In this document: positions 14,912-22,917 of the stretch, piece by piece
How the letters are laid out: each line of letters starts with the position of its first letter
Position numbering within the stretch: position 1 is the first letter of the stretch
From: Candidatus Woesearchaeota archaeon
GTDB lineage: Archaea; Nanobdellota; Nanobdellia; Pacearchaeales; GW2011-AR1
Reading direction: 5' to 3'
Assembly (NCBI GenBank): GCA_964421685.1
Contig: CAYQXU010000001.1
Span: 1 to 41,607 of the forward strand
DNA length: 41,607 nucleotides
Notes under the pieces: generated by a model
Told to the model about the DNA's origin: nothing
Database searches by the model: none
What the model saw: only the letters and a program-made list of their open reading frames with translations
Position numbers and translations under genes: made by a program

Positions 14912-16747
14912 TTACTCATTTAGCGTTTTCTTTAGCCCCTTTTTAGCTTTTTCATATGAGTCTTTAGATATATATTTTCCCAAATAAGCTCTTTCCAGGG
15001 CTTCTAGCTTATTTTTTATTTTTTTTACATTCTTATCTTTTTCGATAATTTTTTTTCTTTCTTCTTCTATATTTTCCGATCTTTCGTCAACTTTTTTCTT
15101 GTATGATGAAATGTCTTCTCTTATTTTTTTCTGCCCACGCCTTAAAATGACAGCTATTATCAATAAAACTAAGACAATTGATCCTATTAGGATAAGCATA
15201 AGATATAGCAAAGATGAGCCTTTAACTCCTGATTCTTTTTCTGTTTTGACAATAATTGAAAAGCTGCTGCTTGCACTCTTGCCTTCATAATCAACTTTTA
15301 CGTATATTATGTATTGTCCGCCGTCCATATTTTTCGGCAATTTTATTAATTTAACATAATTTATCTGACCGTCAACTGCTAAGCTTTCTGTGGCTGAAGT
15401 TATTATATCTCCATAAATGCTTACTATTCTATATTCTATATCAACATCAACTTTTTTATGAACATCTGCTACTTCAAATATTCTTACGTTTAAGAGAATC
15501 TCATCGCCCGGGGAAACTATGGAAAATTGTGTTGGTACTTTTATTTCAACATCAAATAAAGCACTATCTGACTCAACTTCAACTGCCGTTAAAATTTCTT
15601 CTTTTTCACCTCCTGATTCAACTATTATCTTTCCAACATATAAGCTAGGTATAGTGCTTTCTTTTGCTATGAAGTCTATTGTAATTTCTTTTTCTTCTCC
15701 AGGCTTTAGAGTGAATTCTTTTTCATTTATTATCGTGATCTCTTCTATTTTTTGAGCACTTATTTTAATTTTCGTTTCTTCATTTCTTGCATTCTTTACT
15801 TTTATGATTTCTGATTTAATTTGCCCTTGTTTTAAGGACACTTTTATTTCTTTTTTATCTAAGGAAAATATGCTTGGCGTTGCTGGAGAACTTGACCCGC
15901 CCCCACTTGTAATCTTTCCTGTGCCTGATGAAGCTGGAGCCTCTTCTGCAGAATAAACTGAGAAGCCTGTTACATTGAATATTAATGCTCCTCCTGAATA
16001 GCTTTGCTGTGTGCATATTGATGAAGAGCAAACTTCCCCATCTTTTAAGATTCTTGGATTGGTGAAATTTAAATTGTATAAAGTTAAGGTTGCTGGCTTG
16101 TTGAAGTTTGGAAGCTCTGTGGAGTTTATTTCTATTCTGTTATCGGAAATTTTGACACCGTAGCTTAAATTAACTTGATTATCATTGTTGTTAAGATCAT
16201 TTGTCACATTTATTGCCTGATTAAATAATATTTTTCCATAGTTAGTATTTTCTAAAATTATGTTGCTCAAGTTTTGAATATCTTCATAGCTTGAAATGTT
16301 GAAGTTGTTTGAAATACCGCTGTTTGAGCCTGCAAATTCTTCGTAATAAATTGTGAATTTAGACAGGTTTACAAAGAAGCTTACATTTTTTGCTGTAAGG
16401 CCGTAGCTATTGTTAGCGTATAAATATAAAGTATGGTTACCTGAGGTTGTGTTAAAGTAAGTTGAAGAGGCAATTGTGGTGTTTGCAGAATCGTCTATGT
16501 TATAGACTATGGAACTTGCGTAACGAGAGGTGAAGTTTAATAAGAGAGAGTTGTTGTTAAAGTAAGTGTCATTTCTAGGGCTTATTAAGGTTAATTCCGG
16601 GGGCCCTGTAAGAGTTATGTTTATAGCAACATTTTGCGCTGTTGACTCTCCTGTTATTTTTTTTGGATTTGTATTGACTTTTATTAATGAGAATAAAACT
16701 ATTATTAATATAAAAATTCCAAGCAAGAAAAATAACCTCTTATTCAT
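14912..16747 (-). CDS. Surface protein (611 aa) with C-terminal TM and cytoplasmic coiled-coil/SHOCT-like tail
   Basis: N-terminal signal/anchor, sequon-rich ectodomain, CARDB/DUF11-like modules (LKPGEEKEITIDFIAKE...), TM (LLYLMLILIGSIVLVLLIIAVIL), and the tail LEALERAYLGKYISKDSYEKAKKGL. Confidence 0.7.
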   Translation of the reverse strand: MNKRLFFLLGIFILIIVLFSLIKVNTNPKKITGESTAQNVAINITLTGPPELTLISPRNDTYFNNNSLLLNFTSRYASSIVYNIDDSANTTIASSTYFNTTSGNHTLYLYANNSYGLTAKNVSFFVNLSKFTIYYEEFAGSNSGISNNFNISSYEDIQNLSNIILENTNYGKILFNQAINVTNDLNNNDNQVNLSYGVKISDNRIEINSTELPNFNKPATLTLYNLNFTNPRILKDGEVCSSSICTQQSYSGGALIFNVTGFSVYSAEEAPASSGTGKITSGGGSSSPATPSIFSLDKKEIKVSLKQGQIKSEIIKVKNARNEETKIKISAQKIEEITIINEKEFTLKPGEEKEITIDFIAKESTIPSLYVGKIIVESGGEKEEILTAVEVESDSALFDVEIKVPTQFSIVSPGDEILLNVRIFEVADVHKKVDVDIEYRIVSIYGDIITSATESLAVDGQINYVKLIKLPKNMDGGQYIIYVKVDYEGKSASSSFSIIVKTEKESGVKGSSLLYLMLILIGSIVLVLLIIAVILRRGQKKIREDISSYKKKVDERSENIEEERKKIIEKDKNVKKIKNKLEALERAYLGKYISKDSYEKAKKGLKKTLNE

Positions 16748-16781: not shown

Positions 16782-17387
16782 TTAGTATTTTACTTTCTTT
16801 AAGGAAGCTTGCTTTTTACTGTTTTCTTCTTTAGACCTTTTTACATACCATATTATTATAGATATTGCCACAATTGCTATTATAATGATAATCATTATGC
16901 TTATAGGGAAGGTCTTTTTGGCTGCTCCAGCAGAAGGAGAAGGCTCTTCTTTTTTACTTACTATTTTGACAGGTATTTTGCTAGTAAATCCGCTAGATAC
17001 TTCTAACATTCCTCCTCCATTAGTAGAAACTTGTTTGAATGAGACCATTATTTGATCTATTGAACCTATTTCTTTGTCTGCTGGAATGTCTATTTTAACT
17101 TTTACAGTAACATTTTCTGTGCCAAATGGAACCTCATACAACAAGTCATTGTCGTCTATTATTTGGGCTATTTCACTTCCAGCAGTAATGTTAGCATTTA
17201 TAGTTATATCTTGAGGTTCACCTGCCATGTTTTGTAGATATAACGTAACTGTACTTGACTCTCCAGGGGTCAGTTCTAAGTATCCACTTTTAAAATAAGG
17301 AGTTACCACTCCTGACGCATTTGTAAATGATATAAGTGCTACTAAAATAATAAACAAGATTGCTATTTTGTATTTTATTTTTTCCAT
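16782..17387 (-). CDS. Small anchored surface protein
   Basis: Start taken at MEKIKYK (17387). Signal/anchor, one beta-sandwich-like domain (LTPGESSTVTLYLQN...), C-terminal TM and Lys-rich tail. Confidence 0.65.
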   Translation of the reverse strand: MEKIKYKIAILFIILVALISFTNASGVVTPYFKSGYLELTPGESSTVTLYLQNMAGEPQDITINANITAGSEIAQIIDDNDLLYEVPFGTENVTVKVKIDIPADKEIGSIDQIMVSFKQVSTNGGGMLEVSSGFTSKIPVKIVSKKEEPSPSAGAAKKTFPISIMIIIIIAIVAISIIIWYVKRSKEENSKKQASLKKVKY

Positions 17388-17392
17388 TTTTG

Positions 17393-18313
17393 TTATATTA
17401 CCGCAACATTCCACGATCCGTATGCGGAAGATGAATATGACTGCTGGCTTAGGCTTGAAGGCAGTCCTGTAAGACAGAAGTATAAATTTTGCTGTCCTGA
17501 TGTAAAGTTTCCGTAGTTTAATGAATTATTCCCTCTTTGAAGCAATGCTGAGGTTATGTTTTTGGAGGTTGCATTAGCCATTGTTGTTCCTGAACAGCCT
17601 TGAGATATATTCTGAACACTGAAGTTTGCAGCATAAATAAATTCAGTGAGAGTTGTTTCTCCTCTTAAATCGTAAGCTGTAACATTAGTGTCGACAACTT
17701 CATCATTTCCTGTGTTATTTATTATTATTGGATCATTGTTTGAGCCTGTATTTGTAGTTGAAGCAGTTATTGTTGTCCATGTTAATGCTGTAGGACTCAT
17801 AACCATTGATGTAAGTGTGTTATATGTGAATGTTGTTGATGAGTTTTCTGCATAGCTTCCGCTATTGTCTTTTATTGTTGCATTAATTGTCCATGCTGCA
17901 GGCTTGTCGAAATATTGCATTGAAATTGTGCATGTAAAATTAATGTTGTTTCCAACACCTATAGATGTATTTATGCAGGAAGTGTTTGATCTCGTTGTTT
18001 CACCTGAAAATTGAAAGTAAGCTTTAGCAGAGCTTAAATTAATGTTTGAACTTCCATCTACATCATTTGCTGTATAGTTGAATGTTATTGCCTTTGTTGA
18101 AGATTCTGTTGGATTTTGCGATGAAATTGCATTAACAATAGTTACTGTTGGGGCTGTGTTTCCAATTGTTATATTTAAAGAAGCTGTACCTGAAGTTGCC
18201 TTACCTGTTATTTTTGGACTTTTGAAAAAATCAAAAATCCCTGCAGATACAAATGTAGTTATAATTATTCCGACTATGACTATCATAAAAAGAACATAAA
18301 CCTCCTTTCTCAT
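17393..18313 (-). CDS. Secreted 306-aa paralog of the membrane-proximal ectodomain of the 1521-aa protein
   Basis: Own signal peptide. aa about 55-306 align with aa about 1080-1330 of the ORF at 18352..22917, including DNA blocks with 100% identity. Ends at ...YGSWNVAVI without an anchor. Confidence 0.7.
   Translation of the reverse strand: MRKEVYVLFMIVIVGIIITTFVSAGIFDFFKSPKITGKATSGTASLNITIGNTAPTVTIVNAISSQNPTESSTKAITFNYTANDVDGSSNINLSSAKAYFQFSGETTRSNTSCINTSIGVGNNINFTCTISMQYFDKPAAWTINATIKDNSGSYAENSSTTFTYNTLTSMVMSPTALTWTTITASTTNTGSNNDPIIINNTGNDEVVDTNVTAYDLRGETTLTEFIYAANFSVQNISQGCSGTTMANATSKNITSALLQRGNNSLNYGNFTSGQQNLYFCLTGLPSSLSQQSYSSSAYGSWNVAVI
17411..18155. repeat. Direct repeat, copy A (partner at 18934-19675)
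   Basis: Mosaic similarity. Exact blocks at 17418-17566 = 18941-19089 (149 bp) and 17790-17944 = 19313-19467 (155 bp) are separated by diverged patches. Confidence 0.9.
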
Positions 18314-18351
18314 TTTAAAGATAGCACTTAGCCATTTTTAAATATTATTGT

Positions 18352-21300
18352 TCATTTTTTTACTGCTTTTTTGTATATGCTTCCTATATTTCTCTGGTCT
18401 CTTTCAACTAACGACGATATTTCTGAATATTTAAGGCCCTTTTCTTTTAGATGAACAACTATTGATTCTAGTATTGTCAGCTTTCTATTCTTGAATATTT
18501 CTATCGGCAGGGTGTAGCCTTTTTCTTTTATCATTAAAGGATCTTTCTTCTTTTCATAAGCTTTCTTGTAGGCTGTCCATATTGTTCTTTCATCTCTCAA
18601 CAATTGCTTTGAAATTTCCCTATAGTTCATTCCAAGGTTTTCCTTCATGTATTTAACTAAAGATTCTAGCGCTCCTAGTTCTTTTGTGAATATAGACACT
18701 GGGATATTCTTTTGCTTCATTTCTATTATTTCTGCAATCTCTTTTTCACTCAAGCCATATCTTTCTTTCATTTCCTTGATTATTATTTCCAGCAGCTCTT
18801 TTTTATCAAGTGTATATTTTTCTTTTAGCTCGTCCATAATTAACCCTAAAGCCTTGACAAGTCTGTCTTCCTTGATCCCTTTCTTTTTCTTTCTTGATTT
18901 AGGAATTATAAGAGCGAGAAGCACTGTTACACTCCACGACCCGTATGCGGAAGATGAATATGACTGCTGGCTTAGGCTTGAAGGCAGTCCTGTAAGACAG
19001 AAGTATAAATTTTGCTGTCCTGATGTAAAGTTTCCGTAGTTTAATGAATTATTCCCTCTTTGAAGCAATGCTGAGGTTATGTTTTTGGATGTTGCATTAG
19101 CCATTGTTGTTCCAGAACAGCCTTGGGATATATTCTGGATGCTGAAATTTGCAGCATAAATAAATTCTGTTGTAGTTGTTTCCCCCCTTAAATTATAAGC
19201 TGTGACATTTGTATCAAGAACTTCATCATTTCCTGTGTTATTTATCAAGATAGGGTCATTATTGGAGCCTACATTCGTCTGCCATGTAACAATCTGATCC
19301 CATCCTAGCGACGTAGGACTCATAACCATTGATGTAAGTGTGTTATATGTGAATGTTGTTGATGAGTTTTCTGCATAGCTTCCGCTATTGTCTTTTATTG
19401 TTGCATTAATTGTCCATGCTGCAGGCTTGTCGAAATATTGCATTGAAATTGTGCATGTAAAATTAATATCATTGCCGACTGGGACAGAGGTATTTATGCA
19501 GCTTGTGTTCTGTCTTGTTGTTTCACCTGAAAATTGAAAGTAAGCTGCTGCAGTGCTGATATTGATTGTAGAGCCGCCGTTTGCATCTGTTGCTGTGAAG
19601 TTGAATGTTATTGCCTTTGTTGAAGATTCTGTTGGATTTTGCGCAGAGATTGCGTTAACTGCTCCTATTGTTGGAGCTACTTGGCTGATTATGTTGACAA
19701 CATAGGAATTATTTAATCCTAAATTTCCTGCGCTGTCATTAACGTACACATTTATTGTTCTATTTCCATCTGCAAGACTTGTCAAGGGGATTGATGTTGT
19801 GTTACACCAACCATTGGATACAGATAGAGTTGTATTTGTTCCATTTACTTCAATACTACATGAAACAGGTAAGGTTGTCACATCAGTTGCAGAAATGTTT
19901 AGTGTTAGAGTAGCTGTATTTTGTTTTTGAGTTGCGTTAGTATAGGCAGGCAGAGTTATTGTAGGTGCAGTCGTATCTACAATAAATGTCCTGTTTGCTG
20001 ACGTGAATGCAGAATTTCCCACAGTATCATTTCCCCAAGCAGCCCAAACGTATTTTCCATCGGAAATGCTTGCTACTGTGACGTTCCACCATGAATTATT
20101 TAATGGAGTTGCGTTTGTCTGATTTGCTATCCAACTCCCACTCCAATTTCCATAGAGTGCTAAATAGTTAACTGCCACATTATCTGCTATTTTTAGATCA
20201 AAAGTAACTGATTTTGAACTTGAATTGTAATTGTCTACGGGATTTGTTCCAAAAGTTAGATTTGGGGCTACTGCGTCAACTATTATTGTCCTATTGCTTG
20301 ACCAACCCTCGCCCCCAGAAGAATCATTACACCTTATTCCCCAAATAAAACTTGAGTTAGATAAACCACTTGTTGATAGATTATACCATGTAGCGTTAGT
20401 TGGAGAAGATTGGGTTGTTTTTGCTGCCCATGTTCCTGTGTCGTTTGTCCATATTTCCAAAGCTGATAATGTGGAATCTATGTCGTCAGTACACTTAGCA
20501 TCAAATACAGCTGTTGTACTAGCAGTAGTGTTTGCATTAGCAGGATTTGTTCCAAGAGCAGCTATTGGATTTAAATCTACTTTAGTTACATTGAGCTGTG
20601 AATTATTTCCTGAAGAATTAAATAAAACATATCCTCGATAAGTACCATTATACCATAACTCAGTTCCAATGAAATGTCCAGCGGGAAGCAGGTATCCTGA
20701 AGAATTTGAACAACCTGTGGAATTGCTTCTGTATGTTGGAGCAATTTGATTACAATTAAAACTAAGTGGACTCGAGCAAATTTGTGCTTTTGTTCCACAA
20801 GCTGAGTCAGTACAGTCAAGTACACGATATAGATTTATGTAACGGTCTTTTGTTAAAGTACTGTTTGATGCATTGCACCAGATACCTATTGGGAAAGCTC
20901 CAGAGAGATTTGTGTTTACTGCGAAAGAACTGCTAATAAAATACACAGATTGATTTCCGGTGGCAACCCAATCAGCAACCGCCGATCCTGTTGAAGTACC
21001 TAAAGACTGATTAGACACATTTCCTGAAGAAGATATTCCTCTGAAATAATAAGTTGTTAAAACGTTTGTTGGATCGACAATGTGATCAATTTCAACACTT
21101 CCTCCGACAACTTTTAAATCAAATGTCTCTTGGCTGTTTTGCAAGCTTGTTAAAAGAACTTTGTTGTATTGATTATCTTGGATGTTTGTGAATTCTGCTA
21201 TTTTTGTACTCGAGTCTTTTTCATAAACTTCTATTTTTGGCGAGCCACTTATTTTTCTTGGATAAATGGTTATATCATTTGAAGATGTAAGATTTTTTTC

Positions 21301-22917
21301 GAAAGTTACTCTTACGTAATCTTGGTTTGGAATAGTTTCGCTCCAAATTCCATCAAGTTTTTTCACTTCTTCGTAAATATCTGAGAGGAAGTTTTTATCT
21401 TTATCTAAGTGTTCGGCCTTTGTAATAACTATAATTTCAAATGTCTGGTTGCTTAAGCTAGGGACGAGCCATTCTATATAGTCATAAATTCCGTTGCTGT
21501 CTTTATCTTGCACAGAGCTTGGAGATAGATAAGTATTTTGCTCTATCCAATGAATTTTTATTCTTGAGGGATCTTTTAATTTAAGAGATTCTGGCAGATT
21601 TGTGAATGCAAGAACATTTGTGTAGTGGATTCCATCTGGAGAAGAAATCTTTATTCTTTTCCCTCTTGAAATTGTTTCTTCTAAAACTGATGGGGCAGGG
21701 GTTTCGTATTCTAATTCATATATGGAAGAAGAATCCCCTATAGAAATTTCAAGAACAGATGGTCCGGATTGGGAAGGACTCATTTCTTTCTCCGAGACAT
21801 CTGCTTTGATTTCCTTCAATTTTATTTTTTGAGCATCTTTAGGAATTGATATTTTTGTTTTGCCTGTTTTTTTTGGCGTAATTGTTTGCTTCCACTTTAC
21901 ACTTTCTCCTATTTTTCCAGGAAGCTGTATTGTTGTTATATTAAAATCTTGAGTCATGTTTTCTGCTGTTTCATTAACGTTTGTTATGTTGGTTTCTGTT
22001 ATGTTTCTTGGAGGAGTTATTGTTATATTTGTAATGTTTTCTTCTGGTGCTATTTCAGGCACTTTTGGCTTTTCTATGATAATTCCATAGTTTATCCTAT
22101 GAATTTTTAGTACTGTTCCAGCCCCTCCACCATCACCCCGACCACCCACCCCTTCATTCGAAATTTCAATCTTTATATTGTAAGATGACTTATTTAACAA
22201 AAGAGATTCTATATTGCATGTTTCTTCGCAGATATTGGAGAAATTAATGATTTTTATTTGCGAAGGAATTTCCTCACTTGCATTTGTTGCATTTGAAGAA
22301 GTGCCGAAAAACGATTCTTGAATTGCTCCTTGCTTTGAGTTTGGAAAAATTGAACTATCTAAAATTAAGATTTTATCAAGGTAAACTTTAACGATTCCTT
22401 CCCCTTTAATTAGACCATCAATATTGACATAACTTAAATTTCCTTGATTTTCAAGTTTCCATTCATAAGTTGTTGAGTCATTAGTTTCTATGTTTATTTC
22501 TTGAAAAAATTCTTGCTTCTCAATGCTAATTTCAGGAGCTCTCCCTTCTGAAACTAAAAATCCAGTGAGTTTTATGTTTGCTAGTTGAGAGAAAGCGAAT
22601 GTGAGTGCGATTAAAATTATTGAGAAAATTAATATGTTTATTGTGTGATTTTTAATTATGTGTTTTTTATGTTTTTTTATTTCAATTTCACACTCTTTTA
22701 TGTGATTATCATAGTGATTAATGTATTCATGAATATTTTTTCCATCGTGCTTTTTATGATGTGTTTCAATAAAATTAGCATATGTAATTTGTTTTTTATG
22801 ATAAGCATGATGTAGGTTTTCTAAGTAATTCTGGAGATGTTTTTTTCTAATATTTGCTTCTTTAATTTGCTCTTTGAGCTGGGCTATAGAAGCTTTTGCT
22901 AAGCGAGTCCTTTTCAT
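18352..22917 (-). CDS. Giant (1521 aa) two-TM surface protein with His-rich N-terminal and tandem-HTH C-terminal cytoplasmic domains
   Basis: aa 1-92: His/Lys-rich. TM at aa 93-112. About 1200 aa of sequon-rich ectodomain with Ig-like modules. A short hydrophobic segment (VTVLLALIIP) plus KSRKKKKG. A 182-aa tail with two Tfx/LuxR/sigma-r4-like HTH repeats. Confidence 0.8.
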   Translation of the reverse strand: MKRTRLAKASIAQLKEQIKEANIRKKHLQNYLENLHHAYHKKQITYANFIETHHKKHDGKNIHEYINHYDNHIKECEIEIKKHKKHIIKNHTINILIFSIILIALTFAFSQLANIKLTGFLVSEGRAPEISIEKQEFFQEINIETNDSTTYEWKLENQGNLSYVNIDGLIKGEGIVKVYLDKILILDSSIFPNSKQGAIQESFFGTSSNATNASEEIPSQIKIINFSNICEETCNIESLLLNKSSYNIKIEISNEGVGGRGDGGGAGTVLKIHRINYGIIIEKPKVPEIAPEENITNITITPPRNITETNITNVNETAENMTQDFNITTIQLPGKIGESVKWKQTITPKKTGKTKISIPKDAQKIKLKEIKADVSEKEMSPSQSGPSVLEISIGDSSSIYELEYETPAPSVLEETISRGKRIKISSPDGIHYTNVLAFTNLPESLKLKDPSRIKIHWIEQNTYLSPSSVQDKDSNGIYDYIEWLVPSLSNQTFEIIVITKAEHLDKDKNFLSDIYEEVKKLDGIWSETIPNQDYVRVTFEKNLTSSNDITIYPRKISGSPKIEVYEKDSSTKIAEFTNIQDNQYNKVLLTSLQNSQETFDLKVVGGSVEIDHIVDPTNVLTTYYFRGISSSGNVSNQSLGTSTGSAVADWVATGNQSVYFISSSFAVNTNLSGAFPIGIWCNASNSTLTKDRYINLYRVLDCTDSACGTKAQICSSPLSFNCNQIAPTYRSNSTGCSNSSGYLLPAGHFIGTELWYNGTYRGYVLFNSSGNNSQLNVTKVDLNPIAALGTNPANANTTASTTAVFDAKCTDDIDSTLSALEIWTNDTGTWAAKTTQSSPTNATWYNLSTSGLSNSSFIWGIRCNDSSGGEGWSSNRTIIVDAVAPNLTFGTNPVDNYNSSSKSVTFDLKIADNVAVNYLALYGNWSGSWIANQTNATPLNNSWWNVTVASISDGKYVWAAWGNDTVGNSAFTSANRTFIVDTTAPTITLPAYTNATQKQNTATLTLNISATDVTTLPVSCSIEVNGTNTTLSVSNGWCNTTSIPLTSLADGNRTINVYVNDSAGNLGLNNSYVVNIISQVAPTIGAVNAISAQNPTESSTKAITFNFTATDANGGSTINISTAAAYFQFSGETTRQNTSCINTSVPVGNDINFTCTISMQYFDKPAAWTINATIKDNSGSYAENSSTTFTYNTLTSMVMSPTSLGWDQIVTWQTNVGSNNDPILINNTGNDEVLDTNVTAYNLRGETTTTEFIYAANFSIQNISQGCSGTTMANATSKNITSALLQRGNNSLNYGNFTSGQQNLYFCLTGLPSSLSQQSYSSSAYGSWSVTVLLALIIPKSRKKKKGIKEDRLVKALGLIMDELKEKYTLDKKELLEIIIKEMKERYGLSEKEIAEIIEMKQKNIPVSIFTKELGALESLVKYMKENLGMNYREISKQLLRDERTIWTAYKKAYEKKKDPLMIKEKGYTLPIEIFKNRKLTILESIVVHLKEKGLKYSEISSLVERDQRNIGSIYKKAVKK
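18934..19675. repeat. Direct repeat, copy B (partner at 17411-18155)
   Basis: See copy A. Same orientation, offset about 1.5 kb. Confidence 0.9.

Follow-up and report, generated by a model that had tools for sequence, protein, structure and literature searches.

The question raised by this locus is why a small secreted protein and the membrane-proximal part of a giant surface protein, encoded side by side, should share stretches of perfectly identical DNA that alternate with clearly diverged ones. The locus lies within a window of 41,607 nt (contig CAYQXU010000001.1, assembly GCA_964421685.1) from the 927-kb, 86% complete genome of a Candidatus Woesearchaeota archaeon, a tiny member of the DPANN archaea. 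We call the small gene (17393..18313) S and the giant gene (18352..22917) L, both of which are on the minus strand, and we call the next two genes of the cluster X and Y. The original prediction, made from the letters of the window, held that S is a free copy of an L module under ongoing gene conversion, and that it could be either a soluble decoy or a donor cassette for surface variation. We show here that S and the last module of L indeed undergo gene conversion. As for the reason why the two are kept alike, we consider it on balance probable that both serve one surface assembly, in which S is a structural partner of L. Homogenization would then be tolerated, or even favored, since the two modules do the same job in that assembly.

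The two copies form an ungapped direct repeat of 745 bp at an offset of 1523, so that 17411..18155 within S is matched by 18934..19678 within L, in direct orientation and 1.5 kb apart. Precise alignment thus confirmed the direct repeats that had been predicted, except that the L copy ends at 19678 rather than at 19675. On the protein level, L residues 1075-1333 correspond to S residues 48-306 and constitute an S-like module of two immunoglobulin-like (Ig-like) domains. With 103 mismatches the copies are 86.2% identical overall, and yet they contain two perfect blocks, exactly where these had been placed before: one of 149 bp (17418..17566 = 18941..19089, minus strand, S aa 250-299) and one of 155 bp (17790..17944 = 19313..19467, minus strand, S aa 124-175). 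Runs of this length were never reached in 100,000 random placements of the 103 mismatches (P<1e-5), and the same outcome was obtained with third codon positions alone, in which the runs span 51 and 49 third positions.

Substitution rates estimated by the Nei-Gojobori method separate the blocks sharply from the remainder of the repeat. The rate at synonymous sites (dS) is 0 in both blocks but 0.91 outside them, where the rate at nonsynonymous sites (dN) is 0.17 and their ratio (omega) is 0.19. In the most diverged patch (S aa 174-195), synonymous change is saturated too. The patches are therefore not the clustered nonsynonymous change that they had been taken for; they are old sequence under purifying selection, whereas the blocks were put in place only recently. 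The S/L repeat showed no sign of diversifying selection when the blocks were compared with the remainder. The copies repeatedly exchange sequence by non-reciprocal homologous recombination, the two blocks being very recent tracts within older sequence.

The same pattern extends across the clade. Using 35 S/L pairs from different genomes and a tree of 82 module sequences, we found that identity between S and L within a locus ranges from 32% to 94%, and perfect nucleotide tracts of at least 100 nt occur in seven of the pairs (678, 519, 422, 329, 287 and 160 nt, and 155 plus 149 nt in the window). S is 85% identical to the L module of its own genome as against 68% to its closest S orthologue. Indeed, in 24 of the 35 pairs the S and L from one genome are each other's exclusive sisters, with support in the Shimodaira-Hasegawa-like approximate likelihood ratio test (SH-aLRT) mostly at least 94, and 34 changes of the S/L label are needed on the 82-leaf tree. 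The relationship, however, depends on which segment of the module is considered. Within the subclade of the window, own-genome sisters were recovered in 13 of 13 genomes from S aa 126-300 but in only 8 of 13 from aa 47-125; in the latter tree, the L of the window groups with the L of its nearest relative (genome G021), to which its 5' third is 80-87% identical, compared with 71-73% to its own S. Such conflict between the trees of different segments is the classical signature of gene conversion. In this lineage it is mainly the 3' two-thirds of the module that conversion has reached, while the 5' third and the last codons retain an S-specific or L-specific character. The last few residues, for example, are W-x-V-A-V in S and W-x-I-[KR]-I, followed by the anchor, in L.

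A divergent clade, which we call type 2, behaves otherwise and provides an internal control: its S sequences from different genomes join one another, as do its L sequences, and the two are only 32-43% identical within a locus. Both genes are retained, so that conversion has ceased in this clade while the pair persists. Repeated independent duplication as the source of the own-genome likeness is excluded, because the leader of S, which lies outside the repeat, is conserved, with T36 and G37 invariant throughout the family, and because synteny is fixed. Taken together, these results identify S and the last module of L as an ancient paralogous pair homogenized by repeated, clade-wide gene conversion. 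Thus, the ongoing conversion proposed for the window finds strong support in the block statistics, the own-genome sisters and the segment-tree conflict, and it holds well beyond a single genome.

A few loci of the comparison set depart from the usual arrangement. At locus L012 (the whole 4188-bp contig) and at L029:2-3642, L ends at the end of the module, X follows directly and there is no S gene; the respective metagenome-assembled genomes (MAGs) contain one module copy each, which is what deletion (pop-out) between direct repeats is expected to leave. L020:134-2790 carries an S-X-S-X tandem on a 5.9-kb contig, with S copies 100% identical over at least 852 nt, which would represent either an unequal crossover or an assembly artefact. 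At L035:1951-12571 the order is S-X-Y-L and the modules are about 9 kb apart, and still S and L are sisters (SH-aLRT 97-99, 64% identity), indicating that homogenization is not confined to the 1.5-kb spacing.

Concerted evolution of tandem paralogues by intrachromosomal gene conversion is well established, for instance for duplicated tuf genes. The present case resembles it in having identical tracts within older sequence, greater likeness within a genome than between orthologues, and trees that change with the segment analyzed. It differs in that conversion here links a whole gene with the terminal module of a 1521-aa gene, and in that it recurs across an order of DPANN archaea. Surface-antigen paralogues under gene conversion have also been described (PMC10919680). 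The phenomenon is thus of a known kind, while the system in which it takes place is an uncharacterized DPANN surface operon. For these DPANN lineages, neither an S-layer nor an adhesin system has been determined (10.1101/2023.10.27.564410), and our literature search found nothing on this cluster or on gene conversion in Pacearchaeota.

S is a protein of 306 aa (17393..18313, minus strand). A helix at its N-terminus (aa 3-23), serving as signal or anchor, precedes a conserved unstructured extension, after which come two Ig-like beta-sandwiches (aa 56-165 and 170-305) that have one invariant Cys pair apiece. An AlphaFold2 (AF2) model built from a 27-row alignment has a predicted local distance difference test score (pLDDT) of 85.6 and places 7 and 9 strands in the two sandwiches. 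Residues of about 25-55 are modeled with low confidence in the monomer, and yet their sequence is conserved; this extension (ITGKATSGTASLNITIGN, 18158..18211, minus strand) contains T36 and G37 and is a candidate donor or docking strand. As had been predicted, the small gene has a signal peptide of its own, a hydrophobic helix with a ...VSA|G site, at which the helix would presumably be cleaved. S also ends where L enters its anchor: the former stops at ...AYGSWNVAVI, whereas the latter goes on as ...AYGSWSVTVLLALIIPKSRKKKK, running through VTVLLALIIPKSRKKKK into a tail of about 175 aa. The 38-nt spacer between L and S (18314..18351, minus strand) contains a TATA-like box, ATATTTAAAAA, about 22-32 nt ahead of the S start codon, which may be a promoter of S itself; the genome is AT-rich.

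S belongs to a family of at least 257 database proteins, which come from MAGs of Nanoarchaeota, Pacearchaeota and Woesearchaeota and are mostly about 300-310 aa long; apart from itself, its best match is 68% identical. It is therefore not a recent free copy of the L module, as originally thought, but a member of an ancient, length-conserved family with its own leader outside the repeat. Searches of Pfam, NCBIfam and PDB sequences gave no specific match for S, just a weak cadherin-like one at the DxDG region, and a fold search with Foldseek returned generic two-Ig proteins only, such as Fab light chains and RbmA. We also considered a class III (prepilin) signal, given that many S proteins start with MKRG, but the S of the window lacks that Gly and every S protein has a ...SA|G site like those of signal peptidase I; weak Arch_flagellin matches in 3 of 27 S proteins are attributed to the hydrophobic helix.

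The gene order L-S-X-Y recurs in about 30 loci of other genomes, from Pacearchaeota- and Woesearchaeota-type MAGs, so that relatives do carry the same pair, along with two further genes. In the window, L (1521 aa, 18352..22917, minus strand) matches Big_3_4 and Sigma70_r4_2. Its N-terminus is cytoplasmic; then come a hydrophobic helix (about aa 94-114), a large ectodomain rich in Ig-like domains and the S-like module at aa 1075-1333. After the module comes a part absent from S (18355..18918, minus strand), consisting of a short hydrophobic segment, a poly-Lys run (KKKK) and a cytoplasmic tail with helix-turn-helix (HTH) motifs resembling sigma-70 region 4. Across loci, L measures between 528 and 2451 aa; its payload varies while its terminal module is constant, and it takes two forms, one ending exactly at the module end and the other continuing into the hydrophobic segment, poly-Lys run and HTH tail. 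The tail is 40-62% identical among the L orthologues that bear it. In some tail-less loci, the HTH tail is encoded by a separate small gene just upstream of L (L015:372-962 and L032:3824-4333); a DNA-binding HTH module thus belongs to the cluster, fused or free.

X (201 aa, 16782..17387, minus strand) has a signal peptide, a single Ig-like domain, a C-terminal transmembrane (TM) helix and a Lys-rich tail; it measures about 185 aa across loci and lies directly downstream of S in nearly all of them. Its longest open reading frame (16782-17414) opens at a GTG overlapping the end of S, but the ATG at 17387, 5 nt past the S stop, is the likelier start and provides a normal signal peptide (MEKIKYKIAILFIILVALISFTNASG). 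Y, the conserved fourth gene (611 aa, 14912..16747, minus strand; about 570 aa across loci), has a signal peptide, an S-like N-terminal extension (ITGESTAQNVAINITLTG, 16604..16657, minus strand, homologous to that of S), Ig-like domains, a C-terminal TM helix and a coiled-coil tail. A second, paralogous cluster, 35% identical, is present on another contig of the same genome (C21); there, a large module-ended protein is followed by a small free copy and then by homologues of X and Y, and this cluster falls in the type-2 clade. Altogether, the module occurs in 47 of the 151 genomes of the order (24 of 68 among those of high quality), usually as pairs. With such a distribution a core S-layer role is unlikely, and L-S-X-Y is an accessory, patchily distributed system rather than a universal envelope layer.

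A motif in the extensions extends beyond the cluster. In at least 12 predicted surface proteins genome-wide, [ILV]-T-G-x-[AV] occurs 5-20 residues past the N-terminal hydrophobic helix (for example PITGNAASG, SITGNAVAP, TVTGNATAS and PITGNVVAG). The sites include L aa 126-130, S aa 35-39 and Y aa 31-35 in the window, and proteins on contigs C9, C16, C17, C19, C31, C46, C51 and C79. In exported DPANN proteins the motif may act as a shared signal for processing, sorting or strand docking. We also asked whether S might be made by in-frame read-through of the L stop, but S is in the frame of L in 7 of 15 loci, which is no different from chance.

How, then, might S and L work together? In the assembly model that we propose, S would be the repeating subunit of a shaft, providing an N-terminal strand and an acceptor module. 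L would be the adhesin, its variable payload riding on an acceptor module of the S type, and Y would serve as membrane anchor or terminator with an S-like N-terminal donor strand. X would be a membrane-anchored Ig-like helper, possibly a chaperone. Gene conversion would keep the acceptor module of the adhesin matched to the evolving shaft subunit: because L must, under this model, present the acceptor surface of S, homogenization of the 3' two-thirds of the module would be tolerated or favored. In the case of a tail-bearing L, assembly might in addition be coupled to the release of a membrane-tethered HTH regulator. The model draws on the homologous N-terminal segment of S and Y (ITGxATSxxxxLNITI), which is strongly conserved and unstructured in the S monomer model. 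The mean local score between the S and Y segments is 43 within a locus, 36 between loci and about 25 for unrelated controls (permutation P<5e-5). The model also draws on the constancy of the L module beneath payloads of very different length, and on a similarity of X to DUF916 that stays below threshold. Y combines this S-type segment with a C-terminal TM helix, but it has a large Ig-like ectodomain of its own.

Precedents for such an architecture exist in other systems. In chaperone-usher pili, the FimH adhesin has a pilin domain homologous to FimA and FimG. The likeness to these pili lies in an adhesin with a domain homologous to the shaft subunit, which enables incorporation into the same polymer; in contrast, no usher or PapD-family chaperone was detected in our case, there is no outer membrane, and strand exchange is here only predicted. 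The architecture corresponds in each of its parts to that of the WxL clusters of Bacillota, which encode a small protein of signal plus module, a large host-binding protein that ends in this module, and an Ig-like protein anchored in the membrane (PMC10599100; for the csc clusters, PMC1534035). According to a recent preprint, the WxL/Elr clusters build a pilus. The small protein polymerizes as each copy passes its N-terminal strand to the subunit that follows; the large protein, which only accepts a strand, is the adhesin at the tip; the membrane protein acts as chaperone, and a protein that only donates a strand anchors the base. This system was found only in Bacillota (10.64898/2026.10.17.759780). 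In architecture, S likewise consists of a signal peptide, an N-terminal strand and a module, L of a variable payload and the same C-terminal module, X is a membrane-anchored Ig-like protein, and Y is a candidate for the subunit with a donor-type strand and a C-terminal anchor. The differences are that no WxL match is found, that X has one Ig domain rather than DUF916 plus DUF3324, that anchoring is by a TM helix and not by LPxTG and sortase, that the module has two Ig domains, and that L often has a TM segment and an HTH tail. Fibers held together by donor strands are also known from archaea, namely the Sulfolobus threads (PMC9715654), bundling pili (PMC12337348) and cannulae (10.1101/2024.12.30.630787). 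They resemble our system with respect to Sec-exported, N-glycosylated Ig-like subunits with an N-terminal strand and to an adjoining paralogue acting as cap or nucleator, but they lack a giant adhesin that shares the subunit module, and gene conversion has not been reported for them. None of the three showed a sequence or fold match to S. By analogy with the WxL/Elr and chaperone-usher pili, we tentatively suggest that L-S-X-Y may be a previously unrecognized strand-complementation fiber of DPANN archaea, and a pilus-like mechanism as such, likewise argued from analogy, should be regarded as a possibility for which the chances fall short of even.

Several points weigh against a fiber, or against functional coupling altogether. 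The WxL profile hidden Markov model (PF13731) matched nothing in the genome at E<=10 and none of 27 S proteins; by their sequences, S and L, tested for membership, do not belong to the WxL family. Of the 21 X proteins, 6 hit DUF916 (PF06030), over about 45 of 121 profile positions, and the highest score, 23 bits, lies below the cut-off of 27.3; DUF3324 was not found in the X proteins, and PF06030 gave no match above cut-off in 61 genomes. The AF2 monomer of S consists of two apparently complete Ig sandwiches, and L keeps a homologue of the ...NI-I... strand in cis. A cis construct joining the L module to S by read-through (locus L026, 11 alignment rows) was uninformative, with a pLDDT of 62 and a predicted template modeling score (pTM) of 0.36. 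The hydrophobic segments that flank the L ectodomain, together with the cytoplasmic tail, fit poorly with a position at the distal tip unless L is processed. Moreover, neutral conversion between nearby repeats would give the same DNA pattern without any functional coupling, and the assembler could have slightly inflated the perfect identity of the blocks, as a second assembly, considered below, differs at both 3' ends of the repeat and by one single-nucleotide polymorphism (SNP).

In the most serious alternative, which is also the simpler one, S and L would share the module as a non-covalent anchoring domain and use it to dock onto X, Y or another envelope component, without forming any fiber, and gene conversion would be a neutral or mildly beneficial by-product of their proximity. 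X and Y are always adjacent and membrane-anchored, no S- or L-specific columns are found across the whole family, the Ig folds of the AF2 model are complete, and a tail-bearing L holds the module right at the membrane, all of which agree with docking. Left unexplained would be the co-varying N-terminal strand of S and Y as well as the strong conservation of a 300-aa protein consisting of nothing but an anchoring domain. We consider docking somewhat unlikely, though it deserves to be taken seriously, and it should be noted that S is a structural partner of L under either model, fiber or docking.

If S were instead a soluble decoy or competitor, it would mimic the L module and block or modulate the binders of the latter. 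Such a role, one of the two originally envisaged, would be in keeping with an export signal, the lack of a C-terminal anchor and a stop at the very point where L enters its own, and conversion would keep the mimic up to date. However, S and L form an ancient gene pair within a fixed operon of four genes, two of which encode further envelope proteins, and type-2 S and L have diverged to the extent given above and yet are both kept. In addition, the mimicked module would be the conserved, membrane-adjacent part of L and not its variable outer payload. Nothing in our results points to a decoy, and we judge this role improbable.

It might also be argued that the blocks are collapsed or chimeric repeat paths and that the true copies differ throughout. 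The blocks are indeed about one short-read length, and a second assembly from the same population (GCA_016201665.1, JACQCI010000067.1; locus L039), although identical to the window over 13,969 plus 9,075 nt, lacks 57 and 67 nt at the 3' ends of the copies. The first deletion, equivalent to window positions 18892-18948, removes AYGSWSVTVLLALIIPKSR and with it the whole L anchor; the second, equivalent to 17359-17425, fuses S to X in a 487-aa product. Both start directly behind one and the same ...TCATCTTCC, close to the 3' end of the repeat, and the only SNP (17855) is inside the 155-bp block. Because the window version agrees with the orthologues at both disputed sites, it is probably the second assembly that is locally misassembled at the repeat ends, which serves as a practical warning: one published record of this contig has lost the L anchor and joins S to X. 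The discrepancy still indicates that this repeat is difficult for assemblers. The mosaic itself stands, as it is shared in its entirety by both assemblies, as seven MAGs from different studies have like tracts of up to 678 nt, and as the incongruence of the amino acid trees does not depend on perfect identity. An artefact is thus very hard to credit.

Even less credible is programmed surface variation, in which L would be rewritten from S, with S acting either as a donor cassette comparable to pilS, vls or msp2 or as template for a diversity-generating retroelement (DGR). The mosaic nature of the pair might suggest as much, and five matches to reverse transcriptase (PF00078) exceed the cut-off in the 0.93-Mb genome (C27:7445-8167, and on C74, C12, C64 and C72). 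All of these are on other contigs, unlinked to the S/L locus, and could belong either to DGRs or to group II introns. The mismatches between the copies, however, hit all four bases (A 40, T 31, C 22 and G 10 in S) and comprise 53 transitions and 50 transversions; since they are not adenine-specific, and with reverse transcriptases only on other contigs, a DGR is rejected. A cassette library is unsupported because the genome, 86% complete, has only two copies of the repeat and no third. Silent-cassette antigenic variation of the pilE/pilS, vlsE or msp2 type is also at odds with a donor that is a complete, conserved gene under purifying selection at the omega reported above, and clade-wide the differences are not concentrated in a hypervariable patch. 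The donor-cassette role had been the other function considered for S, and on these grounds it is largely refuted. Finally, a recent one-off segmental duplication of the L module followed by patchy divergence without conversion, for which tandem direct repeats of high overall identity might be cited, has a negligible chance of being correct, being refuted by the conservation of the S family and its private leader across the order, a dS of 0 in the blocks versus 0.9 elsewhere, the type-2 grouping, and segment trees in which the N-terminal third of the window L module is nearer to the L of G021 than to its own S.

In DPANN archaea, which live attached to other cells, the display of surface proteins is almost uncharted. 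With the present analysis, about a third of the genomes of the order are seen to share a conserved surface module of four genes, and gene conversion that keeps S and the L module matched amounts to genetic evidence of their joint function. The analysis also yields a concrete and testable model of strand complementation. If that model is true, the design in which an adhesin bears a pilin-like module would have a third origin, in archaea, beside those of the Gram-negative chaperone-usher pili and the WxL pili of Gram-positive bacteria.

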